Assembly (NCBI GenBank): GCA_016938455.1
Contig: JAFGUQ010000062.1
Location: forward strand, 2,477-66,476
Length of the DNA: 64,000 nt
Reading direction: 5' to 3'
From: Clostridia bacterium
Lineage (GTDB): Bacteria > Bacillota > Clostridia > DUPQ01
Below, piece after piece: positions 11,239 to 48,446 of the stretch. Numbering within the stretch: the first letter of the stretch is position 1; every line of letters begins with the position of its first letter. Made by a program: the position numbers and the translations under genes. The notes beneath the pieces were generated by a model. That model searched no databases and had not been told where the DNA came from. It was given only the letters and a program-made list of their open reading frames with translations.

Positions 11239-11252
11239 GCTTCCTGTCCTTT

Positions 11253-12245: not shown

Positions 12246-12259
12246 GGTTCTTGCCTTTC

Positions 12260-23475: not shown

Positions 23476-23498
23476 AAAGCACCATCAGGTGCTTTTTA
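23476..23498. terminator. Bidirectional rho-independent terminator at the 3' end of the antiporter gene
   Basis: AAAAAAGCACC-ATCA-GGTGCTTTTT: A-tract, GC stem, T-tract. Confidence 0.5.
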
Positions 23499-24708
23499 CT
23501 TCCTTTATTTTTTCTGGAATGACAATTTCCCCCGCTTTCAACAAAGCAAACTTCGCTGCAATCGGTCCTATGATCGAGTATATGAATGTGGAGCACAGGA
23601 TAATAACTCTGATTTGTGCAGAATATTCCGGAACAACTGCTCCTGCTACCACAATCAAACCTAACGCCACACCTGCTTGAGGCATTAAGGCAGGACCAAG
23701 GTATCTGCTGATATTTTTATCCTGCTTTGTGATTTTACCACCAGTCCAAGCGCCGGCAATTTTTCCAATGACTCTCATGACTACATAAATCAGTCCGATT
23801 ACACCGATGCTCTTAAGAGCAGAGACTTCAAAGCCTGCACCTGAAATGACAAAGAATAATAAGAAAATAGGGGGTGTAAATGAATCGGTGACTTTTGTAA
23901 CGCTTTTTATGTCATCAAAAATATTGACCAGTACACCGCCAAGTGCCATACAAGCTAACAATGAAGATCCTCCAGTAATCTGAGCCAGCCAATAAGTTAA
24001 CATGATAGCTCCGGCTATGACACAGATTCTGTTTGACGGCTTTTTAAACCATCTGAACATGATTTTCATCAATATGCTGACTATCGCACCTAATACAAAT
24101 GAAATTCCGATTTCATAGAGAGGATCAAGTATGGATAGCAGCACACTGCTGCCGGCTCCTTCAGTCATCATTCTGACAATTGTCGTGGAAAATCCGAACC
24201 CGATCAAAGCCACAGCATCATCAATGGCAACCACGCTCATAAGCATTGATGTCAATGGTCCTCTGGCCTGATACTGGTTGATGACCATGATGGTTTGAGC
24301 AGGTGCTGTCGCTGCGGCTATCGCTCCAAGCATAATGGATAACTTAGTGTCAAAACCAAGCAGCAGTAAAGCACCGGTTACCAGAATGATTGCTCCAAAG
24401 GATTCTGCAATTGCAATAAGTACCGGTGCAGCTCCGACTTTTTTAAAATAACTTAAATTAAATTCACTTCCGATGGAGAATGCGATAAACGCTAATGCTA
24501 TATCAGATATGACGGTAAACCCTTTTACCATACTAACCGGTATTAAATTAAAAAATGATGGGCCTAAAAGCAACCCTGCGATAAGATATCCTGTGACATT
24601 AGGAAGTTTAATGAATTTTGCAAGTCTTCCAAAGATAAGTCCAGAAAGTAATATGAGTGCAACTTCAACAATAATCTTATTTTCCACAGCCAAAGAATCC
24701 TTTCGCAA
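23485..24708 (-). CDS. Cation:proton antiporter (CPA2 / Na+-H+ exchanger family)
   Basis: 407 aa, 11-12 TM helices, Gly-rich KefB/NapA-like composition. Confidence 0.7.
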   Translation of the reverse strand: MRKDSLAVENKIIVEVALILLSGLIFGRLAKFIKLPNVTGYLIAGLLLGPSFFNLIPVSMVKGFTVISDIALAFIAFSIGSEFNLSYFKKVGAAPVLIAIAESFGAIILVTGALLLLGFDTKLSIMLGAIAAATAPAQTIMVINQYQARGPLTSMLMSVVAIDDAVALIGFGFSTTIVRMMTEGAGSSVLLSILDPLYEIGISFVLGAIVSILMKIMFRWFKKPSNRICVIAGAIMLTYWLAQITGGSSLLACMALGGVLVNIFDDIKSVTKVTDSFTPPIFLLFFVISGAGFEVSALKSIGVIGLIYVVMRVIGKIAGAWTGGKITKQDKNISRYLGPALMPQAGVALGLIVVAGAVVPEYSAQIRVIILCSTFIYSIIGPIAAKFALLKAGEIVIPEKIKEVKST

Positions 24709-25030
24709 AATCTATCGGTATGCTAAAAACCACACCAGCGCCTTTATTCCATAAATCGCCGACAACAGATTCAATTGCCTCAACAGCATCATTTAACTGC
24801 TCATCTTGGATGACACTAAAAATGACGTTGCTTTTTTCTCTTTCCGGACTTAAAAAAGCCCTTAGAGAACCAATAAACGGTATTTCATTCTCAAGGTGCT
24901 TATTACTTAATATTCGCGCCATTCCCACACTTTCAATAATGGTTGCTCCGCAGATGTTCTTTCGGACAAAAGCAGTCATGACCTCATCTAATTTGTCGGT
25001 ATCGTTTAAAACAAAAAACAATGCTTTCAT
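24677..25030 (-). CDS. PII-like (GlnB-fold) small protein overlapping the antiporter gene
   Basis: 117 aa. Segment GATIIESVGMAR...VIFSVI...GVVFSIPI aligns in architecture with PII/SbtB-type double beta-alpha-beta proteins. Overlaps the antiporter start by 32 nt. Confidence 0.45.
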   Translation of the reverse strand: MKALFFVLNDTDKLDEVMTAFVRKNICGATIIESVGMARILSNKHLENEIPFIGSLRAFLSPEREKSNVIFSVIQDEQLNDAVEAIESVVGDLWNKGAGVVFSIPIDFAKGFFGCGK

Positions 25031-25198
25031 TGGACACTCCCTTTCTTTACCGGTTAAAGTCCCTACTTTGTTAATTTTTTAACCAAAAATAGCTTTACCC
25101 AATAATTCAGAAAAGTAAACATAAAAACACGAAGTTTTTTTCTTTATATACTATAATATAAAGGAAAGACATTTAAATATTAATGGGGGTGATTCCAA

Positions 25199-26428
25199 AT
25201 GAATGTTAGATTCAATGATGTGCGTGACTGGTTTTTCAAGAAACGTTACGGATTATTCATTCACTGGGGGATTTACGCAGTGGATGGATGGCATGAACAG
25301 ATGATCTATCGTGGTAAATTGACCAGAAAAGAATATGTGCCTAAAATGTTTAAGTTCAACCCTGTCGGTTTCAATCCCGATCAATGGATTGACCTGGCTA
25401 TTGAAGCTGGAATGGAGTACTTATGTTTCACAACCAAGCATGTGGACGGTTTCTGTATGTTCAATACAAAATATACTGAGTTTAACATCATGAATACGCC
25501 ATACATGAAAGATATTCTTAAAATGCTGGCAGATGCCTGCCATCGAAGAAACTTTCCTTTGTGTCTTTATTATTCAATATGCGACATGAATCATATCAAT
25601 TATCCGAATCAGGGACGACCATACGAACTACCTGGTCCAGAGCAGGGAGACCAGCCTGATCAGGAAAAATATCTTGAATTTGTCAGAAATCAGGTCATTG
25701 AACTCTGTACCAATTACGGAGAAATACATGGGTTCTGGTGGGATGCCAATATCATCAGTCATAAGGATGAATCTGTTAACAACTTAATCAGATCACTGCA
25801 GCCAAAAGCTGTCATTAATAACAGAGGTTTTGATGAAGGAGATTTTGGAACTCCTGAAAGAGAATATGACTTTTATTCTCACGTAGATTCCGATGTTTCT
25901 TTTAAAACTCCGGTGGAAGCATGTCAGGCTGTGGGAACAGAGAGCTGGGGGTATAGAGTGGATGAGGATTATTATACCAACAGGTATCTTATGGAAAGTA
26001 TCGATAAAATCATGGCAAAAGGGGGTAATTATCTTCTAAATGTCGGTCCTGATCAAAATGGAGAAATTAATAAAAAATCAAGCGATATTTTACTGACCAT
26101 TGGTAATTGGCTAAAAAAAGTAAAGATTTCTCTTTATGAGGTCATTCCTTCTTCCATATTAACGACTAACCGGGATGTTCTGATCACTAAAAAAGAAAAC
26201 AAACTGTATATTCATTTGTTTAAGTCCCCGATAAAATCTTCTGTGTACCTGCCACCTATAAGCACACTTCCAAAAAAGGCAGTTTTACTGAATAATATGA
26301 CTTCTGTCAAAACAAGCATTGATATTACCCCTCATACCTGGAATGATGAAAAGCGAACGTTGCGTTTATGTGATTTACCTGTCAATGAATTTTTAAATGA
26401 GGTAATGGTCATTGAACTTGAGTTTTAA
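25199..26428 (+). CDS. Alpha-L-fucosidase (GH29), no signal peptide
   Basis: GH29 N-terminal signature YGLFIHWGIY and TKHVDGF. Confidence 0.8.
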   Translation: MNVRFNDVRDWFFKKRYGLFIHWGIYAVDGWHEQMIYRGKLTRKEYVPKMFKFNPVGFNPDQWIDLAIEAGMEYLCFTTKHVDGFCMFNTKYTEFNIMNTPYMKDILKMLADACHRRNFPLCLYYSICDMNHINYPNQGRPYELPGPEQGDQPDQEKYLEFVRNQVIELCTNYGEIHGFWWDANIISHKDESVNNLIRSLQPKAVINNRGFDEGDFGTPEREYDFYSHVDSDVSFKTPVEACQAVGTESWGYRVDEDYYTNRYLMESIDKIMAKGGNYLLNVGPDQNGEINKKSSDILLTIGNWLKKVKISLYEVIPSSILTTNRDVLITKKENKLYIHLFKSPIKSSVYLPPISTLPKKAVLLNNMTSVKTSIDITPHTWNDEKRTLRLCDLPVNEFLNEVMVIELEF

Positions 26429-26434
26429 AAAATG

Positions 26435-26458
26435 AAAAGCTCTGAAAACAGAGCTTTT
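26435..26458. terminator. Bidirectional rho-independent terminator
   Basis: AAAAGCTCTG-AAAA-CAGAGCTTTT between convergent genes. Confidence 0.5.
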
Positions 26459-26480
26459 CATGATTATTTATTAATTGCTT

Positions 26481-28424
26481 TTACATGAAACTTGAACTGG
26501 CAGTTAACGCCCATGACCCTAATATAGCCAATATGACTGAGCCTACATATACATACCCTGTTTTTCTGTAAGCATAAGTTGACAGGAAAAAGAAGAGGAT
26601 GAACTGCGGTATGATCACAATCAGATATGAAATGAACGGTCCTCCGAAAGTGCTTGTGAACAGTATATCCATTCCAGCTCCGATCCCTGCAAAAAAAGGA
26701 ATGTATTCAATAAGTGCAATGATAAACAACCCTCCAAGCATGACCACTATACTGCGAAGCCACCAGACAAGCTGTGTTTTTGCCGGTGATGAAAGTTCAC
26801 TCTGTCGCATCTGCCCATATAACTTAACGCCTCCGTTAACAAGGAAAAATAATAAATAGAATGGGAGATAAACCAGGAACTGCCACCCTCTGCTGCCGCT
26901 GAACGGGCGGAGTAACGGCCAAATGAAACGAAAATCCAGTCCGAAAATAATACTGAAAATCGTCACATAGACATATATCGACAAGACTAGTATAAAGGCA
27001 AGTAAAACTGATTTTCCGATAATCTTCCATGGAAGTTTGTCTGGCTTATTCTCATCAGCCAGTCCAAGATCGTTCAATGTTACACCTGTTTCTTTTCCTT
27101 CTCCTCGTTTAAACCAATACCTGAGCATGAAGAAAGCAATGACTGCCAATAAGAAGAACCATGTGATGATTCCATTCCCCACAGTCATCTTGAATATGTT
27201 TTCCGGCACAGGAACAAGCCCATGTCCTAATTGTGTGATGAAAGGATAGGTAACTGCACTGATAATAATGGCAACCAAAGCTGCTTTCCACCATTTTTTC
27301 TTTGTCATCAATGTTTTCGGGTGATTTGGAATCTTCTGTGAAACATCAGCAAAGAATTTTGTCCTGATCAATATCACTAATAACGGCAGCATTGATATTA
27401 ATGCAGCCAGAAGACCGATAAAAATCAGCAGTTCTTTATATATCGCAATTTGATTATCAGATGAAATCAAAGGATCTATATCAAATGCTTTTTCGAACCA
27501 TTCCACGGTTGTCGCCATACCCTCATGCGAAATTGTCACAAGTCGATGATTGATATTCAGAAGCTGAATACGTCTTGCTGTCCCATCATAAAAATCCCCA
27601 TATGTGGTATTCCACGATATAGGACTGTCCTGTCCTGCAAAATCATGATACCTGAGTTCAGTGTCCATGAGCCCGGAAGTAGAGTGTGTATAGTCACAAA
27701 ACGCTGTGAATTCCTCATACTTTGCCTGCAGAAGAAGCACATTATGAAACTCAATATTTTCACTGTCATAGTACTCTTCCGGTATAAGCTCACCACATTC
27801 AAGCAAGACCGCTTTATGATCCTGAAATGTTTCTGCAATGCTCCAGGCAGCATATGTCCCCATTGAATGACCTGCAACACCCATATTATCACTATCTACA
27901 AAAGGCATTTCTTTTAAAAGTGAATACGCAATACGCCCCCCCATTGAACTGTCCATGTTACTTTCTGCAACATCAGGAAGTGTATAAAAATCAAGCGTGG
28001 AAAAGCTCATCATCAGTAAAAATCTTTCTGGCCCTTTGACAGTCGCCTCCCACTTTGGAATTTTATGAGAGGTATATCCACGCGAAACCATTCCTATGGT
28101 CGTGTCCCCATGCCCGTAGGCATCCAAACACATGGCTACAATACCTCTCCTTGCCAGTTCAAGTGCATATGCTCCTGATGTGTCTTTATCATTCTGGTAC
28201 CCGTGAATCAGAAGTACTGCAGGTGAGGGATTGTCTGCTGTTGCACTATCAGGAACGTACAGCTTATAGGTGATTACTTCGCCGTTATCTGTCTCAATCT
28301 GCCATATGCTCACATCTATTTTACCGAAATCAATTTGAAACGCATATGCTAAGCTCATGGCTGCTATCATAATCAATAAACAGGCAAGAAAAACTATCAG
28401 CGGTTTCTTAATGCTTTTCTTCAT
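26481..28424 (-). CDS. Secreted alpha/beta-hydrolase domain fused to a C-terminal polytopic membrane domain
   Basis: Signal peptide, LLIHGYQND, nucleophile elbow GHSMG, then about nine TM helices in the C-terminal 300 aa. Confidence 0.55.
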   Translation of the reverse strand: MKKSIKKPLIVFLACLLIMIAAMSLAYAFQIDFGKIDVSIWQIETDNGEVITYKLYVPDSATADNPSPAVLLIHGYQNDKDTSGAYALELARRGIVAMCLDAYGHGDTTIGMVSRGYTSHKIPKWEATVKGPERFLLMMSFSTLDFYTLPDVAESNMDSSMGGRIAYSLLKEMPFVDSDNMGVAGHSMGTYAAWSIAETFQDHKAVLLECGELIPEEYYDSENIEFHNVLLLQAKYEEFTAFCDYTHSTSGLMDTELRYHDFAGQDSPISWNTTYGDFYDGTARRIQLLNINHRLVTISHEGMATTVEWFEKAFDIDPLISSDNQIAIYKELLIFIGLLAALISMLPLLVILIRTKFFADVSQKIPNHPKTLMTKKKWWKAALVAIIISAVTYPFITQLGHGLVPVPENIFKMTVGNGIITWFFLLAVIAFFMLRYWFKRGEGKETGVTLNDLGLADENKPDKLPWKIIGKSVLLAFILVLSIYVYVTIFSIIFGLDFRFIWPLLRPFSGSRGWQFLVYLPFYLLFFLVNGGVKLYGQMRQSELSSPAKTQLVWWLRSIVVMLGGLFIIALIEYIPFFAGIGAGMDILFTSTFGGPFISYLIVIIPQFILFFFLSTYAYRKTGYVYVGSVILAILGSWALTASSSFM

Positions 28425-29622
28425 ATTGTTCCCCTTGCTCCGGCCATACTTCTATGACAAGATCTGATAATGGATAGGTACAGCAGGGATGTATATACCC
28501 TTCTTTGATATCCGCAATTCTTCTTGCATCAAGTTCATCAGGCGTAAATATTTCTCCGCTTTCAAGTCTTGAGCGACAAAAGCCGCATTCTCCCCCACGA
28601 CATTTTGAAGGAACTGCGATCCCGGCTCTTTCCAGCGCAATTAATACAGTTTCTTCTGCCTTCATAGGAACAATCAGTACTTCTCCAAACCGCTTTACAG
28701 TGAGTTTGAACTCTTTGTCAATTTTTCCCTTGTATTCCTTGAATTTTTTTGGTGATGAGGGTGCCGCAAGCATTTCTCTTCGTATGAATTTACTTTTCAG
28801 TGACAGCTTTTCCAGTTCTTTTCCCACAAAATCATACATGACTGAAGGACCGCACATGAAAACGCTATACTCACCTTCTGCATATTTTTCAATAATTTCA
28901 GATGTGATAAACCCAAATTCATAACAACTGCTTTGCTCTTTGGATAAAACATGAATCACCTTAACCTTATCACAGTTCTCTGTAATCTGATCAAGCTCTT
29001 TCTTGTAAAGGATTTCATTTTCTGTACAGCTGCCATAAAGGATTGTCATATTAAAGTCTTCAATACCATCTCTGATGGCATAAGCCATCGATAAAAATGG
29101 TGTGATTCCACTGCCTCCTGCAATGCAGACAACATTTTTTGAATCTCTGAGCGGTTCGTAATAAAACACACCTTCTGGTCCGGAAACAGATACTTTTGTT
29201 CCTACTTTCCAGTTTTCGAGAATCCAATCTGAAGCAAACCCGTTTGGAGCACGTTTAATTGTCAAGGCATACTTTCCTTCTTTCACCCATTTTGGAGAAC
29301 TGGAGATTGAAAAAGGTCTTGTCAATATCGACTTTCCTATTTCTAATTTAACAGACAGATACTGTCCAGCACGAAAAGGAGCAAGTTCTTTACCTGAAAG
29401 AATAAAGGTTTTTGCAATTTCTCCGTGTTCAATAATCTCGGTAATTTCTGCCTGCTGAGATTTTGGATGAAGATAAGTTGCCAGTTTGTTGACTTCATAG
29501 CTGGCTGTTGCCCGTTCGGGTGACCCTTCGGCAAGGGCTTGAGTCCTGTTTGGCACCAGTTTTTTAAAATTAAGCATATCCAATAAACCAATTGGTTTTA
29601 CATGAAAATTAAACTTTTTCAT
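28408..29622 (-). CDS. FNR-like FAD/NAD(P)-binding oxidoreductase with C-terminal plant-type [2Fe-2S] ferredoxin domain
   Basis: RPFSISS (flavin RxYS motif), GGSGITPF (NAD-binding), C-terminal CRGGECGFC...C cluster. Confidence 0.7.
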   Translation of the reverse strand: MKKFNFHVKPIGLLDMLNFKKLVPNRTQALAEGSPERATASYEVNKLATYLHPKSQQAEITEIIEHGEIAKTFILSGKELAPFRAGQYLSVKLEIGKSILTRPFSISSSPKWVKEGKYALTIKRAPNGFASDWILENWKVGTKVSVSGPEGVFYYEPLRDSKNVVCIAGGSGITPFLSMAYAIRDGIEDFNMTILYGSCTENEILYKKELDQITENCDKVKVIHVLSKEQSSCYEFGFITSEIIEKYAEGEYSVFMCGPSVMYDFVGKELEKLSLKSKFIRREMLAAPSSPKKFKEYKGKIDKEFKLTVKRFGEVLIVPMKAEETVLIALERAGIAVPSKCRGGECGFCRSRLESGEIFTPDELDARRIADIKEGYIHPCCTYPLSDLVIEVWPEQGEQYEEKH

Positions 29623-31172
29623 TTTGCATTCTCCCTCCTGTCCGCTATTGTCAGTTTTGCTGTCATTTCTCCGTTAAGATAAGTGGAACTATAGCCATAT
29701 ATTCTCGGGCCGTATCCACCTGCAAAACGAATACCCGATACAATCTGGTCATCTTCCAGCATCATCAGCCGTGCCAGCATAGTATCCCAGCCACTGCATT
29801 CATAAGCGTACATCGTTCCTTGTGGATTCAAGGTATATCTTGCCATGGTTACCGGCGTAGCTATTTCAATTTCCTCAATATATGGTATCAATGAAACTCC
29901 TACATTCTTTTCAAAATCACGGATCATGTTTAACGCTACTTCACGTTTCTTTTCTACATATTCATCTGCACCAATATTTCCCCATACATCCTCTGAATAG
30001 AATGTGGTGAAACTCATGATGCAAGTTCCTTCCGGAGAGCATTCTGGATTAGCGGCATTCAAACATACTGTTGCCTGTATGGGATGACTGTTGAAATCTT
30101 TTGCTCTGGCTACTTCCTTTACGGTATCAAGAGACTCGTAAATAAAATAACTGTAATCGGTCAGGCCTATTTCCTCGGCTGATTTGTTAAGACCAAGATA
30201 AACAACAAAACCACGCCCACCGAATTTTCTCGCATTCACCATTCGTGTCTGCTTTTCTGGTACATCGTCTTTTTCCATCATTTCTCCGAAAACCGCATTA
30301 GGTGAACAGCAGGCAATGACATGACTGCACTTAATAACACCATGATCAGTGATTACGCCTGTTACTTTCTGGTTTTCCATAATGATTTTTTCTGCACGGG
30401 TATTATACCAGATATCTCCTCCCAGTTCTCTTATCCGACGGTCCATTGCTGCAGAAAGCTCATGTGAACGGTTTTTAGGAATGTATGCTCCACGAGTCAG
30501 GTACTTGTATACCATTGCCCCATAGATAGCAAAATTCAGCATTTCTCCATCTACTCCGAAATAGCACCAGTAGGCACTTAAAATTCTCTGTGCTTTTTTT
30601 GGCATTTTAATTGCCTTCAGAACTTGATTAACACTGTATCCGCCACACTTTAAAAAGTTTGGGTGTTCCTTCATTAATACTTTTGAATCCGCTTTCCCTG
30701 CTGATTTACCTATATAAGCCAATGCATCCATGATATTCTGACAAAGGGTCATGAATTTCTCCATCGATGGACGGCTTCCAGGCACATATTCTTCCATTTT
30801 GTCAACAAAAGCATCTACACCGAAAGGCATAGTCACATCAAGATTATCTTCCCCTTCATTTGTTGTAATCACTCGATAAGCTTCTGGAACAGGCACCCAT
30901 TCAATCTTCACATCTAGTCGCTCCAGAAGTTTACGAATATCCCCGGGATTCTCTTCCGGACCAAGATCACACAATTCATGCAGTGATGGTTCAAATTCGA
31001 ATCTTCCTCGTCTGAAACTCGTAGCGAATCCTCCGGGTAAATTATGCTGTTCCACCAGCAGTGTTTTTAAGCCGTTTTTAGCAGCGGTTGCTGCTGCTGA
31101 TAATCCACCGTTTCCAGCACCTATAACGACTACATCATATATATTTTCCAAAATACATCTCCCCTTTCCCAA
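29619..31172 (-). CDS. FAD-dependent oxidoreductase, phytoene-desaturase/amine-oxidase (CrtI-like) family
   Basis: N-terminal dinucleotide fold VVVIGAGNGGLSAA...LVEQHNLPGG, 517 aa. Confidence 0.7.
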   Translation of the reverse strand: MGKGRCILENIYDVVVIGAGNGGLSAAATAAKNGLKTLLVEQHNLPGGFATSFRRGRFEFEPSLHELCDLGPEENPGDIRKLLERLDVKIEWVPVPEAYRVITTNEGEDNLDVTMPFGVDAFVDKMEEYVPGSRPSMEKFMTLCQNIMDALAYIGKSAGKADSKVLMKEHPNFLKCGGYSVNQVLKAIKMPKKAQRILSAYWCYFGVDGEMLNFAIYGAMVYKYLTRGAYIPKNRSHELSAAMDRRIRELGGDIWYNTRAEKIIMENQKVTGVITDHGVIKCSHVIACCSPNAVFGEMMEKDDVPEKQTRMVNARKFGGRGFVVYLGLNKSAEEIGLTDYSYFIYESLDTVKEVARAKDFNSHPIQATVCLNAANPECSPEGTCIMSFTTFYSEDVWGNIGADEYVEKKREVALNMIRDFEKNVGVSLIPYIEEIEIATPVTMARYTLNPQGTMYAYECSGWDTMLARLMMLEDDQIVSGIRFAGGYGPRIYGYSSTYLNGEMTAKLTIADRRENAK

Positions 31173-31181
31173 TATTATGTT

Positions 31182-31898
31182 TTATCTTTTAAATACACTG
31201 GCAAGACCAATGATTCCCATTTCAAGTACATTTTTCATCGCTTCATGCGCTTTCTTCTCATTTCTTTCAAGTAATGCTTCATATAATTGTTTATGATAGT
31301 CAATAGAAGTGTCTCTTCTTTCATTGCTGGTGAAATAAATTTTGAAAAAGAAATGCATCGCTTTACTGAATGAATTGAATATCATTGCATATACAGCATT
31401 TCCCGATGCAGAAATCAGAGCATAGTGAAAAGCAAAATTACCATCAATAAAGCTGTTGATATTTTCATGTTTCTCCATGATTCTAAGTGCTTCTTCCATT
31501 TGCTGAAAATCTTCATTTCTGGCATTTTTAACAGCCAGGTTTGTACATTCATATTCGAACAAACGACGCATATCCATCATATTATCAAAAAGGTTCCAAT
31601 CCATTTTATCTATATCATAATTCATTAATGACATTAGCATCTGAGGAGTTCCTTTTCGTTTGTAATCATTGACAAAAGTCCCTTGTCTTGGAACAATCTT
31701 CACAAATCCCTTATGTTCAAGCTCCAGAATACAAAGATTAACCAAGCTTCTGCTTATTCCCATTGATGCTGCAATATCACGTTCCGGCGGAAGTCTGTCA
31801 CCTGGCTGTAATTCACCTGAGAGTATTTTGTTTTCCAACTCTCGTATCACCTTTTCTTTCAAACTTTCATTGGTAATTTTAGAAAATATATTACTCAT
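31182..31898 (-). CDS. GntR-family transcriptional regulator (FadR/FCD subfamily)
   Basis: wHTH: GDRLPPERDIAASMGISRSLVNLCILELEHKGFV. Start taken at the Met preceded by GAGGGAA; the ORF-track start is an upstream TTG. Confidence 0.75.
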   Translation of the reverse strand: MSNIFSKITNESLKEKVIRELENKILSGELQPGDRLPPERDIAASMGISRSLVNLCILELEHKGFVKIVPRQGTFVNDYKRKGTPQMLMSLMNYDIDKMDWNLFDNMMDMRRLFEYECTNLAVKNARNEDFQQMEEALRIMEKHENINSFIDGNFAFHYALISASGNAVYAMIFNSFSKAMHFFFKIYFTSNERRDTSIDYHKQLYEALLERNEKKAHEAMKNVLEMGIIGLASVFKR

Positions 31899-32098
31899 TG
31901 GTTCCCTCTTTTTCTGATAGACTCTAACTTTGACTGTTGTGGCATGGCCACCAACCAAATAATATCATACTTTCCTTTTATATACAATATGCTTAAAATA
32001 TCAGACATTAATCACTCAAATTAATATAAAAAGAGATATGCTCTTTTTCATATCTCTTTTATTCTAAAAATTATTTGCCCTTTGTAAATTATTTAATT

Positions 32099-35000
32099 TT
32101 ACGGTATGGTAACCGTTACAGAATGGCAAGGTACAAGAGTACCATCAATTAATATTGCGAAACTTGTATACTGCATACTGTTCTCATCATCTTCAAAGTC
32201 ACTTATTACCATTTCTCCAAGGTTATACTCACTAGATCCTGCCTCTTCACCGTTTTCCTTAAATACTATCCCCTCAAGCGCCATGACTGCTATACCAGAA
32301 GTGGAAAAATTGATACTTTCAGCATTAAAACTTCCTGTAAAATCCTCAAAGCTAAGTATTCCTGTTATAAGTGCTGTTGCATTTTCCTCTTCAACTGTTA
32401 TCGAAACAGTCGATGCTCCGCAAATCCTCATGAATAACACTGTCAAATCACCGGTACTGTTAGTTATCAAAGTAGCATTATCAAGTTTTATTCCTGCCAT
32501 TATTTCAAATGCAACTCCATCAGAATTGATTCTTACATCTGCATCTTTGAATATCCACTCCCCACCGGTTCCTTCATCATTCCCCAGTGCAATTCCTGTA
32601 CTTGTAATTTCTGTTTCCAATGAATCAATGTTGAAAACATTACTGCAGTATACAGTATAGTTTCCTTTTCCGCTTATATTAAGGCTTGCATCAGATCCGT
32701 CGCCAATTAGGTGTATTGAACGTTCAAGTCTCACAGATGGTTCTCCAGTTTTCGTATTGCTGATTGTACAGTTCCCCTGAATATTAATTATCAGATCTTC
32801 TATTGCTTCTGTCGCAACAAGAACTCCGTTAACATTTGAATAATCTCCTGTCAAAGTCAGGTTTTTAAAAGTCACCTCTGTTACATCTGGTTCGATGATA
32901 AGACATACTGTACTACTGTTACCGCTGACAGTCAGACCACTTCCTGTTAAAATCAGGGTGGGAATTTCTCCAACCATTCTATATGAGTATCCTGCGATAC
33001 TTCCAACATTTATATCTTCAGATACATTTTCATATGTAATGAAAACTCCAGTTTCAGGAAGTGGGTCCTCTGTAGAATATGCCTGATAAACTGCTGTGAA
33101 GGTTTTGTTCCATGTCACTGTAGTCTCATCACTCAGCAGGGGAGTCCAGCTGTTAAATATATATTCGTAGCCCGTTCCTCCTTCTCTTATCGGGTTATTG
33201 GGAGGTACAACTTTATCACCATAATGGTAAGTCTGTATAAGTGTATTATCTCCGTTTTCAAACTTCCCTTCACCTGCATCAAAAGTAACAGTGTACTCTT
33301 TCAGCTGGGAACTGTATTGTGCATAGTATGTTTGATTTGAATTAGTTGTTATTCCTGGTTGATAAGAAGGACTCCAGCCTGTAAAGGTATATATCCACAT
33401 TTCTGTTGATTCTTTTTGTGGTATTTCATTAAATTCAGGTGTTTTTCCTCCGTAAACACTCTGAAGAGTTTTTTGAGTGCTTCCATCGGTAAAGTGTCCA
33501 GAATTAGCATAGAAAGTAATTGTTACACTCATAGGTGTCTTCGCATAAGTTGCATATAGTGTTATATTATCATTAAAAACAGCATCACTTAAACTGCTTC
33601 CATATGATGCATCCATCTCAGCAGCCCACCCTGTAAACTCATAATGATACTGGCCATCATCAAACTTCACAGGTATTTCGTTGAAATTTACTTCAGTCCC
33701 ATATGAAGCAGTAATTGCTTTCACTGTGTCACCATCTGCAAATATTCCACCGTTTGTATTAAATGTAATCGTTTTATCTACTCCAACAAGAGTAAACTTC
33801 ACTACTGCATTTATATATTCAGAAGGAAATCCTTCTTCATTGAGTATACTTCCAAACTGATATGGTAACATCAGTCCGTAATTAATTAATTGATAATCAT
33901 AGTTATTAATATTTGATGTCTTTTTCAAATCTTTAAGCATATCTTCAGTGATTACTTCTCCGTAATGTCCGCTCAAGTATACTTTTTTATCACAGCCGTC
34001 AAAGCGGACAGTGTAAACAATTGGCTCAGCCTTAAATACAGGTTTAAACGTAAGATTATATTGATAATCTGTATAAAAATCACTCATATATAATTTGATA
34101 TGTGAACCGTTTACCATCTCTGTAGATTGCCAGTAATCAACAGTATACATGTTTTCATTATCTCTGTAGGTCAATGTTGGAAGATATAGGAAATTATATT
34201 CATGGTATGTTCCTTTGTATTCCTTTATATTCGTCCCATCCGAAAAACTATGATCTCCTGCATCAAAAACTGTTGTCACTTCAAGATACTGCTTGTCATA
34301 TACAGGAGAAAAAACTTCATCAGCATACACATTTCCAAATGCTGTTCCACTATCTGACACCCAGCCTTTAAACTGATATCTATAATAGTCTTCTTCCCCT
34401 TCCAATGTGTCATAAACTTTTGGCATTTCAGGTATTTCTCCTCTCACTATTTTTTGCTCTGAGAGGAATTTTCCTTCTATATCCTTGAATATGACTTTCA
34501 CATATGGCTGAAATATGGCATAGTATCTTTCATAGTTATTCATTGAAGCATGCAATGATGGCCACCATCCTGCAAATTTCTGGTATTCAGTATCAAAGAT
34601 ACTCATATCAGGTGCTTCAGGAACAGTTCCCTTCTTTACATAATATGATGTTATATTAGTAGTATCATCTATGTAAAAACCTGTTAAGCACATGTCGGCA
34701 GCCTGTTTGTACGTAGCGGTATAGCTGAAGTCAGTTTGAACTGAACGTAATGGCGGACTCCAGCTGTCAAACTCCCATCCTGGTTCAGTTACCATATCTT
34801 CTGCAGATGGTGTCATTGGAATGTCTCCTGAAAGAGTTTGAAGGGTCTTTATTTCACCATATTGATATGTGCCTGTCTCTTCATTATATACAGTTCCATA
34901 AAAAGTAATGTTCTTATAGTTCATTTCGTAATCCAGATGATAATCTGTATCTTTGTAAATTGCTTCAAAAGACTCTTTCCAGGGTTTTGCCCAATCTTTA

Positions 35001-37699
35001 ATTCTATACTTTGAGTATATCAGCAACTCTTCATAAGACTCCTCAGGTACCGGGACAGGAATCTGTCCTATGTAATACTCTTTTTCTTCTAATACACTTC
35101 CATCAGGTTTGTGAAATATTGCTTTGAACTTCTGTGTACTGTCATCAACCTTATATTTCATATATGTAAAATTAATATTCTTGGTTATCAGCTCCAGATT
35201 CCTGGAAAAAAGGGAACAACCTTTTGTATATTGTACGACAACAGTAAAATCAAGACGATCCGGGGCTTTATCCTTAATAGTTATCATTCCGGTATCCTTG
35301 TCCATGGATATATAATCTAAATCAGTCTTATTTCCTTTGCCTGTTTTATCTTGAATTAAGAAAAAAGCATACTCATCACTGAAAGCTGCCGGCTTAATCT
35401 CGATAGTAACACCTGTTGATTTCCCTTCAATGTTAATATATTTCAAATTCAGCAGTTTATCATCTCCACTGTTTTTAATATTATATGACATAGTATTGAA
35501 TGTGATTGAATTTTCGTTCTCCTCAAATTCAGAAGCAAATTCAAGTGCTCCAATGGTTAATATCGGAAATTTCATTTCAGCAATAGTAACACTATCCTCA
35601 TATCCGAATATATTCCAGGTAAATTCAAGTACTACATATACTCCTGTCTCACTTTTCAGACCACCTGCAAGTAACATACTGGAGTCTGAATCAATTATGT
35701 TATACTCAAACCTCAAGTATCCTGTGATTTCTTCATAAACACCTACTTCAGCAGAAAATCCGAAATTCAACCATTCATTCATATGAAACACACTGAAATT
35801 TACACCTGCGCAAAGCCCGGCACGAATGCCTACTTGCCCTTTTAAAACTGCTGTGAAATGAGCTTCTGACTTCAACCTCTCACTATAATTTGTCATGGAT
35901 GTCTTTGTTAATTCGCTTCTTGAATAGTCAACATTATACATTCCTATTTTTCTGACTTCATTGCTTTTGAAGTTCAAATCCAAACCTGCTCGAAAGCCAA
36001 CACTGACATTAAAATCCAGTGTGAACTGAATAGATAATATTTCATATATCGTTACAGTTTTATTTCCTAATGGTTTTGAAAAAATCTTAACATAATCCAA
36101 ATCATCTCCAAAGAAATTCTCATTATTGAGGTTTTCAACAATCACTGCGGTTTTATCATCACTTTGCAAATCAATCAGATTCTGAATTTCATCTGTAATA
36201 TTCACCTGCCCACTCCCGGTTTTTATTACAATATTGAATGATACTTCGAAATTATTATTCAAGTGAATTCCATTATCAACATATAACTTGGATTCCTCCA
36301 TTTTCATCCAGCCATATGCAGTTGTAACGATATTTTCTCTCATGGTTAAATTAAAAACAAGATTAATGTTCTCATCCAGTTTTATGCTAATATCTCCTGT
36401 AGTGAATTCAATTCTGCCAAAAAACCCGTTATCATTGTTTTGAATGTCTTTTGTTGTCCCAATAGAGATGTCGAATCTAACATTTTTTAGCAAGTCTATC
36501 AAAGTATCAACACTCATCTGTTCAAACTGATATTGCTTTTCAGTATCCATATTCCTGATCGTTTTCAATAAAGTCGGACTTTGTTTAATGCTGTTTGCAA
36601 TTGTTTTACATAAATAGTCATACCCTTTACTATCATTAAGAGATGATTGAAAACTTTGTTCTAGTGCATTAGACATTACTTGATCTTCTTCAAAATAGAT
36701 TGCATCCCCATTGTAAAATAATTCATATTCTGAATATATATCATTAAAATCAGGAGCAATCAAGTCAAGGGTGGTACCCTCTTCATCTTTGATGACTTTG
36801 AACACCTTGTAATACTGATAGTCCTCAACAGTTTCATTTACACTGCCTAAGCTGACAATATCCCCTTCTAGATAAGCTATATCATCTTCAATTAATTTTG
36901 CGCGATAAATGGTTTTACCAGCATCTATTCCTTGATTTACTTCTCCAGCGACTTCAAAGGTTGATATATTAGAGCTTAATAGAAGTTTTGTTTCTGCTTT
37001 CACAACGATATTCTTTTCATTTTCTCTATATACAGAAAAAGTATAATTTGTTATGTTTGAACCGGAAACATATTCTTCCCCTGCTTTTACAAAGTATATT
37101 TTACTATCATCTTTTATCTTTATAGAGTAAGTAAAACCTTCTGTAAAGCCATCTTTTGAGTATAACAAATAATAATCACCCTGAGGTTTCACAGAAAGCG
37201 TTTTAAAATCTTCAACGCCTATATTTGAAAAGCTGATGTAATCCGTTAAATTTTCATCAGTCAGCACAATATCTGAATGGACTGTAAAAGATATGTCAAT
37301 ATCGCAATCTTTAATATATTCAGAATTACGTGCTTCCATATCTGGTTTATACCATCCAGCATAAAGCGTAGTATCTTCTGTAAATATGTCACTTTCCTTG
37401 TAAGCATTAACTGGTGCCTCTTCATAAAACCACCCTGTAAAAATATATCCGGATCGATAAGGTGAGACAATATTACTGATTTTTTCTCCTTTTTGTAGTG
37501 TCTGGTTCTCAACTAAGCTTCCACCTGTACTATCAAACATAATGATAATCGGCACATCTGACGAAGATAAGCGTTCTCTTGAATTAAAAAAAAGAACACT
37601 TCCTATGATAAATACTATCAACATTATTACAATAAAAACATATATGACAGTTTTTCCTTTTTTACCCATGCTATTTGTGTTGTCATTTTTTTTGAACAT
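32099..37699 (-). CDS. Giant (1866 aa) membrane-anchored surface protein with multiple Listeria-Bacteroides (Flg_new, GY-F-GW) repeats
   Basis: N-terminal signal anchor. At least 8 repeat units with the GYxFxGW / YAxW motif (FTGWFYE, QFKGWVSD, FAGWWPS, FDSWSPP, EFTGWAAE, TFTGWSPS, IFNSWTP ...). No LPXTG motif. Asn/Ser-rich beta-strand composition. Confidence 0.7.
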   Translation of the reverse strand: MFKKNDNTNSMGKKGKTVIYVFIVIMLIVFIIGSVLFFNSRERLSSSDVPIIIMFDSTGGSLVENQTLQKGEKISNIVSPYRSGYIFTGWFYEEAPVNAYKESDIFTEDTTLYAGWYKPDMEARNSEYIKDCDIDISFTVHSDIVLTDENLTDYISFSNIGVEDFKTLSVKPQGDYYLLYSKDGFTEGFTYSIKIKDDSKIYFVKAGEEYVSGSNITNYTFSVYRENEKNIVVKAETKLLLSSNISTFEVAGEVNQGIDAGKTIYRAKLIEDDIAYLEGDIVSLGSVNETVEDYQYYKVFKVIKDEEGTTLDLIAPDFNDIYSEYELFYNGDAIYFEEDQVMSNALEQSFQSSLNDSKGYDYLCKTIANSIKQSPTLLKTIRNMDTEKQYQFEQMSVDTLIDLLKNVRFDISIGTTKDIQNNDNGFFGRIEFTTGDISIKLDENINLVFNLTMRENIVTTAYGWMKMEESKLYVDNGIHLNNNFEVSFNIVIKTGSGQVNITDEIQNLIDLQSDDKTAVIVENLNNENFFGDDLDYVKIFSKPLGNKTVTIYEILSIQFTLDFNVSVGFRAGLDLNFKSNEVRKIGMYNVDYSRSELTKTSMTNYSERLKSEAHFTAVLKGQVGIRAGLCAGVNFSVFHMNEWLNFGFSAEVGVYEEITGYLRFEYNIIDSDSSMLLAGGLKSETGVYVVLEFTWNIFGYEDSVTIAEMKFPILTIGALEFASEFEENENSITFNTMSYNIKNSGDDKLLNLKYINIEGKSTGVTIEIKPAAFSDEYAFFLIQDKTGKGNKTDLDYISMDKDTGMITIKDKAPDRLDFTVVVQYTKGCSLFSRNLELITKNINFTYMKYKVDDSTQKFKAIFHKPDGSVLEEKEYYIGQIPVPVPEESYEELLIYSKYRIKDWAKPWKESFEAIYKDTDYHLDYEMNYKNITFYGTVYNEETGTYQYGEIKTLQTLSGDIPMTPSAEDMVTEPGWEFDSWSPPLRSVQTDFSYTATYKQAADMCLTGFYIDDTTNITSYYVKKGTVPEAPDMSIFDTEYQKFAGWWPSLHASMNNYERYYAIFQPYVKVIFKDIEGKFLSEQKIVRGEIPEMPKVYDTLEGEEDYYRYQFKGWVSDSGTAFGNVYADEVFSPVYDKQYLEVTTVFDAGDHSFSDGTNIKEYKGTYHEYNFLYLPTLTYRDNENMYTVDYWQSTEMVNGSHIKLYMSDFYTDYQYNLTFKPVFKAEPIVYTVRFDGCDKKVYLSGHYGEVITEDMLKDLKKTSNINNYDYQLINYGLMLPYQFGSILNEEGFPSEYINAVVKFTLVGVDKTITFNTNGGIFADGDTVKAITASYGTEVNFNEIPVKFDDGQYHYEFTGWAAEMDASYGSSLSDAVFNDNITLYATYAKTPMSVTITFYANSGHFTDGSTQKTLQSVYGGKTPEFNEIPQKESTEMWIYTFTGWSPSYQPGITTNSNQTYYAQYSSQLKEYTVTFDAGEGKFENGDNTLIQTYHYGDKVVPPNNPIREGGTGYEYIFNSWTPLLSDETTVTWNKTFTAVYQAYSTEDPLPETGVFITYENVSEDINVGSIAGYSYRMVGEIPTLILTGSGLTVSGNSSTVCLIIEPDVTEVTFKNLTLTGDYSNVNGVLVATEAIEDLIINIQGNCTISNTKTGEPSVRLERSIHLIGDGSDASLNISGKGNYTVYCSNVFNIDSLETEITSTGIALGNDEGTGGEWIFKDADVRINSDGVAFEIMAGIKLDNATLITNSTGDLTVLFMRICGASTVSITVEEENATALITGILSFEDFTGSFNAESINFSTSGIAVMALEGIVFKENGEEAGSSEYNLGEMVISDFEDDENSMQYTSFAILIDGTLVPCHSVTVTIP

Positions 37700-46202: not shown

Positions 46203-48128
<1,926 letters not shown>

Positions 48129-48395
48129 TTAAACTCCACTTCTGTTTCTTTTTTCCAATGTTTTTGATGAAATAGATGTAATATATACTTTTACTTTACC
48201 CTGTTCTTCAGTAACAATGAATGTTTTAGGCATTTCGTCACTGACAGAAATAATTGATTTCTCTTTTTCTTTATCATTTAGATATTCTCTTGTTAACTTT
48301 GAAATTGTAGTGTTTTCAATATCAAAAATTCCAATTATATTACTTTCTCTAATCAAATATTCTCCACCAATATGAAGAAACATTATACTCTCCAT
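48129..48395 (-). CDS. DUF370 / RemB-like protein (YaaB)
   Basis: 88 aa, MFLHIGGEYLIRESNIIGIFDIE pattern, in the conserved recF-yaaB-gyrB position. Confidence 0.7.
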   Translation of the reverse strand: MESIMFLHIGGEYLIRESNIIGIFDIENTTISKLTREYLNDKEKEKSIISVSDEMPKTFIVTEEQGKVKVYITSISSKTLEKRNRSGV

Positions 48396-48446
48396 TTCTT
48401 AAACATTATATATTATTATATAACATTTACATACTTTTTTCAATTT

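Follow-up and report, generated by a model that had tools for sequence, protein, structure and literature searches.

The window, a 64-kb stretch of DNA, contains four minus-strand open reading frames, all of them present as described in an earlier note, encoding a GntR/FCD regulator, a flavin adenine dinucleotide (FAD) protein, an FNR-[2Fe-2S] reductase, and a hydrolase-membrane fusion (Table 1). The four genes form one transcription unit in an uncultured gut Clostridia bacterium, bounded by terminators and with a single conserved predicted GntR operator in front; these features and the gene overlaps agree with the operon proposed in that note. The junctions of -4 bp between the FAD and FNR genes and -17 bp between the FNR and fusion genes were confirmed as overlaps of 4 and 17 nt, whereas the 10-bp gap given for the GntR and FAD genes was not: it measures 30 nt from the TTG start at 31151, which is backed by an identical database gene call (510 aa; P0001, L084) and a GGGGAG ribosome-binding site, and 9 nt only from a TTG at 31172. 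Searches with Rfam returned no RNA element within 24000..33000, and the 64-kb window holds no paralogues of the four genes. Glycan-degrading genes are abundant in the window. Whether the operon is real or a chance arrangement was judged by conservation in other genomes. In HMM searches, the GntR, FCD, FAD_binding_6, NAD_binding_1, Fer2, Amino_oxidase, and NAD_binding_8 domains all scored above their Pfam cutoffs.

Table 1. Coordinates of the operon genes, regulatory sites, and flanking terminators in the window
Feature	Position	Strand	Basis
Bidirectional terminator hairpin, common to the convergent alpha-L-fucosidase gene; downstream operon boundary	26432..26461	.	13-bp stem, T-runs on both strands
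C-terminal 8-TM domain, CPBP (Rce1/SpdC)-like fold, without canonical protease motifs	26481..27464	-	
N-terminal TM anchor (residues 6-30) and extracytoplasmic alpha/beta-hydrolase (about 31-320) of the 647-aa fusion	27465..28424	-	AlphaFold, Foldseek
FNR-type NAD(P)H oxidoreductase, C-terminal plant-type [2Fe-2S], 404 aa	28408..29622	-	Pfam
CrtISO/RetSat-like FAD flavoprotein, 510 aa, predicted catalytic subunit	29619..31151	-	Pfam, NCBIfam
GntR regulator, FadR/FCD subfamily, 238 aa, probably autorepressor	31182..31898	-	Pfam domains
Predicted GntR operator palindrome GTGGC-N3-GCCAC (GTGGCATGGCCAC)	31939..31951	.	Sequence conservation
Predicted -10 box TATGAT of the operon promoter	31964..31969	-	Read from sequence; probable, inferred
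Terminator-like hairpin, 3' end of the upstream 1866-aa surface-protein gene; upstream operon boundary	32029..32060	-	12-bp perfect stem, then T-run

The GntR gene starts at an ATG at 31898 behind a AGAGGGAAC ribosome-binding site, and its homologues are also 238 aa long. Its product scores 62 bits for GntR, 90 bits for FCD, and 54 bits for FadR_C in Pfam, every NCBIfam equivalog score is under its cutoff (NanR, PdhR, and LldR are among these matches), and in a neighbor-joining tree the protein groups with regulators most of which accompany the esterase fusion. The operator palindrome has its sole match in the 64-kb window at this promoter; in related loci it is kept 50 to 85 nt upstream of GntR, with TATGAT retained 8 to 10 nt upstream of the operator. 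The palindrome precedes GntR-esterase units too, is duplicated in L002 and L101 with a copy facing a divergent FAD gene, and also precedes the FAD gene of L058; across 2.15 Mb of related loci, 15 of the 18 sites lie at these promoters. The GntR protein is probably an autorepressor, which would bind the palindrome just downstream of the -10 box and be released by a ligand, probably a carboxylate or a lipid.

The FAD protein matches Amino_oxidase, NAD_binding_8, and DAO in Pfam. Its assignment in the earlier note to the phytoene-desaturase family is right at the superfamily level but not at the family level, where TIGR02734 gives 75 bits against a cutoff of 238.1. Family-level similarity is strongest to carotenoid isomerase, CrtD, and CrtI; the best NCBIfam match, carotenoid isomerase, extends over nearly the full length at 99.9 bits (cutoff, 586.9), and the closest PDB entries are those of CrtI (4dgk and 4rep; E about 1e-17). 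The family comprises 3597 homologues at E<=1e-10 and 1150 clusters (50% identity, E<=1e-30), and it carries the family-specific RGRFEFEPSLHE in place of the GxxFDxGP motif. Neither the NCBIfam equivalogs, where scores were far under the cutoffs, nor the PDB nor the literature yielded a characterized homologue or named pathway, in keeping with the earlier view that the operon matches no characterized one. There was no sign of carotenoid synthesis by the hosts in the loci examined.

The FNR protein contains FAD_binding_6, NAD_binding_1, and C-terminal Fer2 domains (Pfam), preceded by a conserved, family-specific N-terminal extension of about 55 aa. The motifs RPFS, GGSGITP, and CGP and the cysteines C341-x4-C346-x2-C349...C379 are kept across 74 homologues, and all NCBIfam equivalog scores fall below the cutoffs. 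Within the 80 top-ranking loci from a set of at least 591 genomic hits, the FNR gene lies directly 3' of the FAD gene in 78, and in the remaining two the contig ends first. These FAD-FNR loci span Clostridia and Asgard archaea (Christensenellales, Oscillospiraceae, Natronincola, and Promethearchaeota). Natural single-chain fusions of the two proteins, in both domain orders, are found in five representatives (P0274, P0370, P0405, P0406, and P0409). The redox pair of two flavoproteins suggested earlier is thereby well supported, and the conserved core is this two-gene module, not the four-gene set. Gene order and fusions mark the FNR-[2Fe-2S] protein as the dedicated electron-transfer partner of the FAD protein. 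A TetR or GntR regulator is the only companion of most FAD-FNR pairs, and no metabolic gene is found consistently beside them.

The fusion gene (26481..28424, minus strand) encodes a 647-aa protein with nine predicted transmembrane helices (1 + 8). Alpha/beta-hydrolase families of Pfam match the hydrolase domain at 24.1, short of the gathering score of 27; an AlphaFold model (pTM 0.86) and Foldseek (probability 1.0) confirm the fold, with PET46, Thermoanaerobacter TTL lipase, and L. buchneri feruloyl esterase as top PDB matches and with feruloyl and acetyl-xylan esterases among the structural neighbors. The residues G185-H-S187-M-G (GHSMG), H74-G75, and H293 are invariant, and the domain is acidic, with a K-rich N terminus and a K/R-rich loop on either side. 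The 8-TM domain matches no Pfam family and has no sequence-level match to PF02517. The structural models indicate an extracytoplasmic serine esterase fused to a CPBP-fold, nonprotease 8-TM domain, as expected from the earlier description of a secreted alpha/beta-hydrolase with about nine transmembrane helices. The CPBP/Rce1-like fold had been overlooked.

The locus joins two modules, each of which is also found alone in other genomes. The esterase fusion mostly stands as its own GntR-esterase unit or alone, without FAD-FNR, so that coupling of the modules is facultative; even among esterase homologues of >=55% identity, about half are without FAD-FNR. The two are linked in seven loci (the window, L001, L002, L081, L096, L101, and L128), which show at least four arrangements, two GntR clades, and shared operators. 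The full four-gene set is limited to a narrow clade, and the neighborhood comparison thus does not uphold a conserved system of four families.

Genes of lipid metabolism occur beside both modules. A gene for YhhN (lysoplasmalogenase family), a protein with documented activity (PMC3137066, PMC9052158), adjoins FAD-FNR in L001 and L003 and the esterase fusion in L001, L139, L140, L146, and L147. Sets of PlsA/PlsR/Ger-type domains, as defined by the published architecture (PMC13159169), are present in L001 and L032, where the identity of the Pls-like genes is uncertain because they are split and shorter than canonical PlsA/Ger. A PlsC acyltransferase gene adjoins the fusion in Leadbettera, and three loci contain DegV genes. 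Associations with YhhN and Pls-like genes come from a handful of loci, and the tie of both modules to ether-lipid/plasmalogen genes is circumstantial. The likeness of the hydrolase domain to lipases and feruloyl esterases and the CPBP fold of the membrane domain point to lipids as well, and the hydrophobic, lipid-type substrate put forward in the earlier note is plausible. Ger homologues have been reported in Asgard archaea (PMC13159169), which also carry the FAD-FNR pair.

The most likely function of the operon is the modification of double bonds in lipid-like compounds. We give about an even chance to a GntR(FCD)-repressed operon in which the FAD-FNR pair reduces or isomerizes a lipid-derived C=C bond and is accompanied by an outer-face esterase with a CPBP-like lipid-holding domain. 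The best reading of the chemistry is NAD(P)H-driven saturation, or reduced-flavin isomerization, of a C=C bond in a hydrophobic substrate of lipid origin. The FNR protein would accept hydride from NAD(P)H at its bound flavin, and its C-terminal [2Fe-2S] cluster would relay electrons one at a time to the FAD cofactor of the CrtISO/RetSat-like protein. Once reduced, this FAD would saturate the double bond or, as reduced flavin, isomerize it. An unsaturated fatty acyl chain, a plasmalogen alk-1-enyl (vinyl-ether) chain, and an isoprenoid alcohol are the candidate substrates. The proposed chemistry has parallels in CRTISO, which depends on FAD in its reduced form, and in RetSat, which saturates a C=C bond. 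Reduction is not a foregone conclusion, since the CrtI superfamily includes desaturases, isomerases, ketolases, and a hydroxylating dehydrogenase. The serine esterase would sit on the outer side of the membrane, where the fused CPBP-like, nonprotease 8-TM domain probably positions a lipid of the bilayer for the hydrolase, much as SpdC does with SagB; the ester bond would be cut and the hydrophobic product released or taken up.

Electrons could instead flow the other way, with the CrtI-like protein desaturating or anaerobically hydroxylating an allylic C-H bond, in the manner of phytoene desaturase or limonene dehydrogenase, and with NAD(P)+ as the final acceptor, reached via the [2Fe-2S] cluster and then the flavin of the FNR protein. 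Most members of the CrtI family are desaturases, and in PyrK/PyrD an Fe-S subunit of FNR type is able to deliver electrons to NAD+. Reduction of NAD(P)+ with electrons from a C-C desaturation is energetically very unfavorable, however, and the FNR-Fer2 architecture normally carries electrons from NAD(P)H. The only described system joining a CrtI-family flavoenzyme to a 2Fe-2S chain, the limonene dehydrogenase CtmAB with the [2Fe-2S] ferredoxin CtmE and the ferredoxin reductase CtmF, is oxidative (PMC4109377), but it depends on an acceptor of high (positive) potential and is judged unable to operate where conditions are strongly reducing (PMC12583861). The hosts of FAD-FNR are fermentative anaerobes of gut, digester, and sediment, in which the reductive direction is therefore favored, and we regard an oxidative pair as improbable. 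Amine-oxidase-type chemistry, with the FAD protein acting on a soluble metabolite at a C-N or another polar bond and the esterase separately degrading polysaccharide or phenolic esters, would fit the Amino_oxidase match, the small carboxylates usually sensed by FCD-type GntR regulators (NanR, PdhR, and LldR matches), the feruloyl and acetyl-xylan esterases near the hydrolase in structure, and the richness of the window in glycan-degrading genes. This is very unlikely given that full-length similarity places the flavoprotein in the carotenoid isomerase/desaturase branch rather than with amine oxidases, that the membrane fold attached to the esterase is of the lipid-handling CPBP type, and that the genes recurring nearby belong to lipid rather than to amine or sugar metabolism.

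Less easily set aside, though still unlikely, is the possibility that the modules are unrelated, an independent FAD-FNR cassette having been inserted into a unit of GntR and esterase-CPBP. Each module mostly occurs alone, about half of the close esterase homologues are without FAD-FNR, and the window GntR belongs to a clade that is usually esterase only; against this, the linkage recurs in several arrangements and both GntR clades, operator copies face divergent FAD genes, YhhN genes independently adjoin both modules, and the window genes overlap translationally. The earlier note had also linked the FNR protein to a Rieske oxygenase at 719..1690, a genuine open reading frame (Rieske and VanA_C) that has no reductase of its own in the window. 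That the FNR protein is the class IA reductase of this VanA-like enzyme, with the FAD protein independent, draws on a domain order like that of phthalate dioxygenase reductase and VanB, and it is hardly credible: adjacency to the CrtI-like gene in all informative loci, archaea included, and the fusion proteins argue that the reductase serves the flavoprotein, no Rieske gene is among the recurrent neighbors in the loci examined, and the Rieske gene lies 27 kb off in another transcription unit.

The redox pair is a widespread yet unstudied two-protein flavin/iron-sulfur enzyme, here joined to a membrane-anchored esterase, and its parts resemble several known systems. The FAD protein shares superfamily and N-terminal FAD fold with CRTISO, RetSat, and CrtI (4dgk) but is far under their family cutoffs, has its own motif instead of GxxFDxGP, and has a dedicated Fe-S reductase partner, of which none is known for those enzymes. 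The FNR protein shares its cofactor motifs and its domain order, a flavin-binding barrel followed by an NAD(P) domain and a plant-type [2Fe-2S] domain at the C terminus, with class IA Rieske-oxygenase reductases (2pia, VanB), PaaE, Hcr, and GbcB; it differs in its N-terminal extension, its subthreshold equivalog scores, and its partner, which is a flavoprotein rather than a Rieske, di-iron, or hybrid-cluster protein. PyrK/1ep3-type proteins of dihydroorotate dehydrogenase B are also among the FNR matches. In that enzyme PyrK, an FNR-like [2Fe-2S] subunit, connects NAD(H) with the flavin of PyrD, a distinct flavoprotein that carries out the catalysis, an arrangement that by analogy may resemble the wiring of the FAD-FNR pair; the cluster-binding C terminus of PyrK differs from the plant-type ferredoxin domain found here, and its partner is a TIM-barrel FMN enzyme rather than a CrtI-like FAD protein. 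SagB-SpdC has a separate glucosaminidase where the fusion has a covalently attached N-terminal alpha/beta serine esterase, and the membrane domain, unlike SagB-SpdC/Rce1 (CPBP), is without a sequence-level PF02517 match. The bacterial ether-lipid/plasmalogen genes (YhhN, PlsA/PlsR, and Ger) that recur beside both modules are absent from the window itself, and no reductase for the vinyl-ether bond, or for lipid chains in such a setting, has been described. The Ctm system of Castellaniella defragrans can be likened to the window pair in that a COG1233/CrtI-family flavoenzyme is genetically coupled to an NAD(H)-linked [2Fe-2S] chain and attacks a hydrophobic olefin in the absence of O2 (PMC4109377). 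Ctm has two flavoprotein subunits with separate CtmE ferredoxin and CtmF NADH:ferredoxin reductase and works oxidatively in a denitrifier (PMC12583861), whereas the pair described here combines one flavoprotein with a fused FNR-ferredoxin in fermentative anaerobes.

The window contains four successive minus-strand genes, just as the earlier note had described, which encode a GntR/FCD regulator, a CrtISO/RetSat-like flavoprotein (FAD protein), an FNR-type reductase with a C-terminal [2Fe-2S] domain (FNR), and a fusion of a predicted serine esterase to a CPBP-like membrane domain. The close junctions reported there also stand for the FAD and FNR genes (4-nt overlap) and for the FNR and fusion genes (17-nt overlap), but not for the GntR and FAD genes, which had been placed 10 bp apart. 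The FAD open reading frame opens at TTG 31172; the supported start is TTG 31151, 30 nt past the GntR stop, and is backed by an identical database protein (P0001, 510 aa; the gene call of homologous locus L084) and by a GGGGAG ribosome-binding site. A single operon is predicted from the shared strand, the short or overlapping junctions, the lack of a strong internal terminator, and the flanking promoter and terminator. Rfam returned no RNA element in or around the operon, and the window holds no paralogs of the four genes. The window comes from a MAG of an uncultured member of the Clostridia, and its fusion protein is 100% identical to the NCBI entry "MAG: alpha/beta hydrolase [Clostridia bacterium]". 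In the two closest genomes, a Bacillota MAG and a Christensenella MAG, the FAD protein is 81% and 73% identical, respectively.

Positions of the features discussed, in the window and in homologous loci (L numbers) from other genomes
Feature	Sequence	Position	Strand	Basis or remark
GntR regulator	window	31182..31898	-	ORF listing; Pfam GntR, FCD, FadR_C
FAD protein, 510 aa	window	29619..31151	-	ORF listing; Pfam Amino_oxidase, NAD_binding_8, DAO
FNR-like protein, 404 aa	window	28408..29622	-	ORF listing; Pfam FAD_binding_6, NAD_binding_1, Fer2
Hydrolase-membrane fusion, 647 aa	window	26481..28424	-	ORF listing; alpha/beta-hydrolase Pfam matches sub-threshold
Putative operator	window	31939..31951		single occurrence in window
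Terminator-like hairpin	window	32060-32029		one operon boundary
Terminator-like hairpin	window	26461-26432		other operon boundary
Rieske + VanA_C ORF	window	719..1690
Rieske + VanA_C ORF with APH-family gene	window	719..2656
Glycan genes	window	3658..14830 and 25199..26428
Na+/H+ exchanger gene	window	23485..24708
117-aa ORF	window	24677..25030
1866-aa protein	window	32099..37699
Replication-origin region	window	46203..58390
gyrB	window	46203..48122	-
dnaA	window	51072..52403	-
mnmG/gidA	window	56513..58390	+
Extended operon	L001	6379..21220
142-aa ORF	L054	12852..13277
Paralogous pairs with ~890-aa protein	L076	7120..12967
Paralogous pairs with ~890-aa protein	L078	8524..14373
DUF1295-type protein	L081	10047..10913

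Directly upstream of the operon is a gene for a 1866-aa protein with a Listeria-Bacteroides repeat (Flg_new) and an N-terminal anchor; a 1904-aa ORF occupies the same position in L001, the closest genomic relative, and synteny thus reaches past the operon. Genes for the use of host or plant glycans lie around the operon (a TRAP transporter [DctP/DctM], a sulfatase, a GH78 alpha-L-rhamnosidase, and an alpha-L-fucosidase whose gene is convergent with that of the esterase) and suggest a glycan-foraging gut lifestyle. A 117-aa ORF, for which Pfam has no match, shares ~30 nt with the start of a Na+/H+ exchanger gene. The window also includes the chromosomal replication-origin region, where the cumulative GC skew has its minimum near 52 kb and GC drops to 0.28-0.31 at 48-54 kb.

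The conserved core of this operon is the FAD-FNR pair. With a profile (A1) of 15 FAD homologs as the query, a scan of a single genome for each GTDB species gave at least 591 confirmed matches, from which the best 80 loci were kept. An FNR-Fer2 gene lies directly 3' of the FAD gene in 78 of these 80 loci (tblastn with the window proteins as queries), and in the other two the contig ends before the FNR position. The 80 loci include Christensenellales, many Oscillospiraceae-type gut MAGs (Subdoligranulum, Gemmiger, Ruthenibacterium, and Massiliimalia), Natronincola peptidivorans DSM 18979, Syntrophomonadaceae, and some ten MAGs of Promethearchaeota and Hodarchaeota, whose proteins are 47-51% identical to those of Clostridia; the pair is thus present in gut Christensenellales and Oscillospiraceae, in microbiomes of animals and digesters, and in Asgard archaea. 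When 1.84 billion cluster representatives were searched exhaustively by HMM, the FAD family comprised 1150 clusters (50% identity) at E<=1e-30, and five long fused proteins were found among the best 150 clusters: P0274 (918 aa) has an N-terminal FNR-Fer2 and a C-terminal CrtI-like domain, and P0370, P0406, P0405, and P0409 (882-916 aa) have the opposite domain order. Because the two genes are adjacent in two domains of life, are translationally coupled, and are fused in both orders, the FAD-FNR partnership is secure. The four genes that the earlier note had taken as one dedicated system are, judged by these loci and fusions, not the conserved unit.

Among the two closest ORFs on either side of the pair, taken together over the loci and searched with Pfam, only regulators were frequent (TetR in at least 10 loci, with GntR/FCD also recurring), so that the typical unit consists of a regulator, FAD, and FNR; no conserved metabolic partner appeared among the pooled neighbors. 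A 196-aa neighbor cluster occurs in ~20 of the FAD-FNR loci. Two or three paralogous pairs are present in each of L001, L058, L066, L074, L076, L078, and L080, which suggests substrate diversification. In L076 and L078, a protein of ~890 aa with Fer4, Fer4_20, and Pyr_redox_2 (NfnB-like) domains is encoded between two such pairs; this architecture is that of IsrA, the putative isoprene reductase of Acetobacterium (PMC10134865). The distribution across Clostridia and Asgard archaea looks like inter-domain transfer. In the Asgard loci (L061, L062, L064, L067, L070, L073, L074, and L079, all from MAGs of several studies), the pair often adjoins a divergent PFL-like glycyl radical enzyme and activase, a cation-diffusion transporter, and an Ldh_2 gene. 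Homologs of the ether-lipid protein Ger have been described in Asgard archaea (PMC13159169).

The FAD protein is a member of the CrtI/amine-oxidase flavoprotein superfamily (PF01593, 34.3 versus a Pfam gathering threshold of 19.8; PF13450, 37.6 versus 21.9), with the GxGxxG-type dinucleotide-binding motif VVVIGAGNGGL at its N terminus and PDB profile matches to CrtI (4dgk and 4rep). Its best NCBIfam match, to the carotenoid isomerase family TIGR02730 over residues 12-454, scores 99.9 bits against a cut-off of 586.9, and its match to the phytoene desaturase family TIGR02734 (crtI_fam) scores 75 bits against 238.1, which places it outside both. NCBIfam has no equivalog for any of the four operon proteins, and for each named enzyme family tested the locus is below the threshold of membership. 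The literature on phytoene desaturases, CrtI-like/COG1233 proteins, ferredoxin partners in anaerobes, biohydrogenation, and fatty-acid reductases yielded no characterized close homolog, a plasmid protein search returned relatives at <=27% identity only, and cluster look-ups gave no informative names. IsmB, from the coprostanol pathway, and the isoprene reductase IsrA were considered as relatives and rejected, as each belongs to another enzyme family.

The domain order of the FNR (FAD_binding_6, NAD_binding_1, Fer2) is that of class IA reductases, and its motifs RPFS, GGSGITP, CGP, and C341-x4-C346-x2-C349...C379 are kept across 74 homologs. An N-terminal extension of ~55 residues is specific to the family and conserved (D15, F19, R26, N45, A48, and LHP51-53), making it a candidate docking element. 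The earlier note had likened the protein to reductases of Rieske oxygenases and pointed to the only Rieske gene of the window. That ORF does encode Rieske and VanA_C domains, but it lies 27 kb from the FNR, whose constant partner in the loci and in the fusion proteins is a flavoprotein; this answers the Rieske idea. Reductases of the KshB/VanB/PDR type are defined by pairing with a Rieske terminal oxygenase, and the FNR is not among them; it also scores below all cut-offs of the BenC, PaaE, GbcB, and Hcr equivalogs. The Rieske ORF itself, vanillate-demethylase-like, sits beside an APH-family phosphotransferase in a presumed strict anaerobe, and no reductase gene adjoins it.

The fusion protein belongs to a family conserved over its full length (640-665 aa) in Clostridia and termite-gut Treponema. 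Its AlphaFold model (pTM 0.86) has an N-terminal transmembrane helix, an alpha/beta-hydrolase domain, and eight more transmembrane helices. By structure, the hydrolase domain is closest to PET46, the Thermoanaerobacter lipase TTL, and an L. buchneri feruloyl esterase (Foldseek probability 1.0 and TM[target] 0.58-0.65 versus esterases and lipases). Alpha/beta-hydrolase Pfam scores are below gathering (24.1 < 27); GHSMG (Ser187), H74-G75, and H293 are invariant in 34 fusion sequences, and the modeled fold, the GxSxG nucleophile elbow, and the catalytic histidine predict a serine esterase of the alpha/beta-hydrolase class. A K-rich N terminus, an acidic hydrolase domain (45 D+E versus 19 K+R), and a K/R-rich loop after TM2 would place the esterase outside the cell. 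The membrane domain has the CPBP membrane fold (CPBP/Rce1, Pfam PF02517); among 34 aligned homologs, the protease motifs EExxxR and HxxxN/D occur in none and FxxxH in 4. The domain has no Pfam match at E<=1, which together with the missing canonical motifs argues for a CPBP-like non-protease, and its homologs are without Pfam annotation. A YhhN-like identity was ruled out by hhalign (probability 0.2%). The fusion represents a new domain architecture for a fold otherwise known from prenyl-protein proteases and from the scaffold SpdC, a comparable case that places a lipid-anchored substrate for the hydrolase SagB. In L054, a 142-aa ORF directly 3' of the FNR gene is 55% identical to the final third of the CPBP-like domain and may be what is left of a former esterase fusion or else a free-standing mini-domain.

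The regulator belongs to the FadR/FCD subfamily of the GntR family (PF00392, 62.2 bits; PF07729, 90.3 bits) and has a conserved palindromic operator of the GT..AC type; against the E. coli-type acyl-CoA sensor FadR (TIGR02812), it scores 75.6 bits versus 249.2 and lies outside that group. A metagenome scan with the fusion profile added 80 loci, which were analyzed by tblastn. Distant fusion homologs (<55% identity) occur without GntR, FAD, or FNR, and in the clade of at least 55% identity a fusion gene placed directly after GntR is the common unit (L083, L089-L094, L097, L098, L100, and L132). The FAD-FNR pair is linked with the fusion in seven loci and in several arrangements: collinear in the window and L001, divergent with an adjoining GntR-fusion unit in L002 and L101, divergent without GntR in L128, and as FAD-FNR-fusion with a divergent GntR from another clade in L081 and L096. 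The window regulator falls in the fusion-associated clade of the GntR tree, which suggests that an FAD-FNR cassette was inserted into a GntR-esterase unit. The putative operator GTGGC-N3-GCCAC is conserved in upstream regions right after a conserved TATGAT, and of its 18 sites in related loci (2.15 Mb in all), 15 lie at promoters of GntR or FAD genes. Facing the divergent FAD gene is a second, inverted copy, 97 nt upstream of it in L002 and 62 nt upstream in L101; L058 has a site 53 nt upstream of the FAD gene. With operator copies at both kinds of promoter, the pair and the esterase fusion appear to share one regulon within the clade of the window, in a coupling that is facultative.

Clues to the substrate come from neighboring genes. 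The extended operon of L001 consists of GntR, a second, divergent FAD-FNR pair (35-37% identity), the orthologous pair, a YhhN-family gene, the esterase-CPBP fusion, three PlsA/PlsR/Ger-like genes (DUF2229+HGD-D, DUF2229, and BcrAD_BadFG), and an H+-pyrophosphatase. A YhhN gene is also located directly upstream of the FAD gene in L003, which is without the fusion (tblastn), and YhhN is the commonest specific neighbor of distant fusion homologs (5 of 105 neighbors, including those in L139, L140, L146, and L147). YhhN proteins are lysoplasmalogenases, which cleave vinyl-ether bonds (PMC3137066, PMC9052158). L032 carries a DegV gene plus the same three domain combinations just 3' of its FNR gene, and this domain set defines the plasmalogen synthase PlsA/PlsR and Ger (PMC13159169). 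The identity of the L001 and L032 genes is tentative because they are split and short, and the association is weak, as the L001 proteins had tblastn matches in 2 of about 170 loci. DegV, a fatty-acid-binding family, occurs in three FAD-FNR loci, and in Leadbettera the fusion lies 3' of a PlsC-type acyltransferase. Both regulator types have well-known fatty-acid-sensing members. Taken together, these neighbors, each from few loci, suggest that the substrate is a membrane or dietary lipid, perhaps an ether lipid. L081, in a 2.85-Mb genome, encodes a DUF1295/steroid-5-alpha-reductase/ICMT-like membrane protein convergent with the esterase fusion, which is another nearby family of the lipid/isoprenoid C=C-reductase type.

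In the proposed mechanism, GntR would keep the operon repressed until its ligand appears, and the fusion would cleave a lipid ester at the outer face of the membrane, thereby freeing the hydrophobic substrate. Electrons would pass from NAD(P)H through the FNR flavin and the [2Fe-2S] cluster to the FAD of the CrtI-like protein and on to the substrate, leading to C=C saturation, as in RetSat, or to isomerization by the reduced flavin, as in CRTISO. Candidate reactions would be the biohydrogenation of lipid-derived unsaturated fatty acids, the reduction of alk-1-enyl ethers (plasmalogen vinyl ether to saturated alkyl ether), and the saturation of allylic isoprenoid alcohols of the phytol or retinol type. 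To our knowledge, several long-known anaerobic transformations of hydrophobic olefins are without genes, among them the reactions that complete fatty-acid biohydrogenation, that turn phytol into dihydrophytol, and that give rise to saturated alkyl ethers beside plasmalogens; our literature searches agree. No member of the FAD-FNR pair has an assigned function. We consider it unlikely that the pair is the missing class for anaerobic hydrogenation of nonactivated lipid double bonds, spread by horizontal transfer, and that the fusion is a new membrane lipid esterase feeding it. In that reading, the transfer would have involved Clostridia of gut, rumen, and digester as well as Asgard archaea. A two-gene candidate with natural single-chain fusions, for which good expression is expected, makes these orphan transformations directly testable; it would also show the class IA reductase architecture in a new role, feeding a flavoprotein and not an oxygenase, and could hint at the type of electron donor used by RetSat-type saturases.

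The sole described CrtI-family flavoenzyme with a [2Fe-2S] chain is the limonene dehydrogenase CtmAB of Castellaniella defragrans, which works with the ferredoxin CtmE and the reductase CtmF (PMC4109377). The Ctm enzyme is oxidative and requires a high-potential acceptor, for which reason it is judged unsuitable for reduced habitats (PMC12583861); electron flow from NAD(P)H to the substrate is more likely here because the hosts are fermentative anaerobes and the reductase architecture is normally fed by NAD(P)H. Gene make-up also separates the two: Ctm has two distinct COG1233 subunits, a separate ferredoxin, and a separate ferredoxin reductase, and oxidizes an allylic methyl group, whereas the window has one flavoprotein gene and a fused FNR-ferredoxin and is not a Ctm system. 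The individual parts are all known: the flavoprotein is of the CrtI superfamily, the reductase of the class IA type, the regulator of the FCD type, and the hydrolase of the alpha/beta class, and the membrane domain has a CPBP fold. Their combinations are not previously described; what is new is the fixed pairing of a reductase with a flavoprotein rather than with an oxygenase and the fusion of an esterase to a CPBP-like domain.
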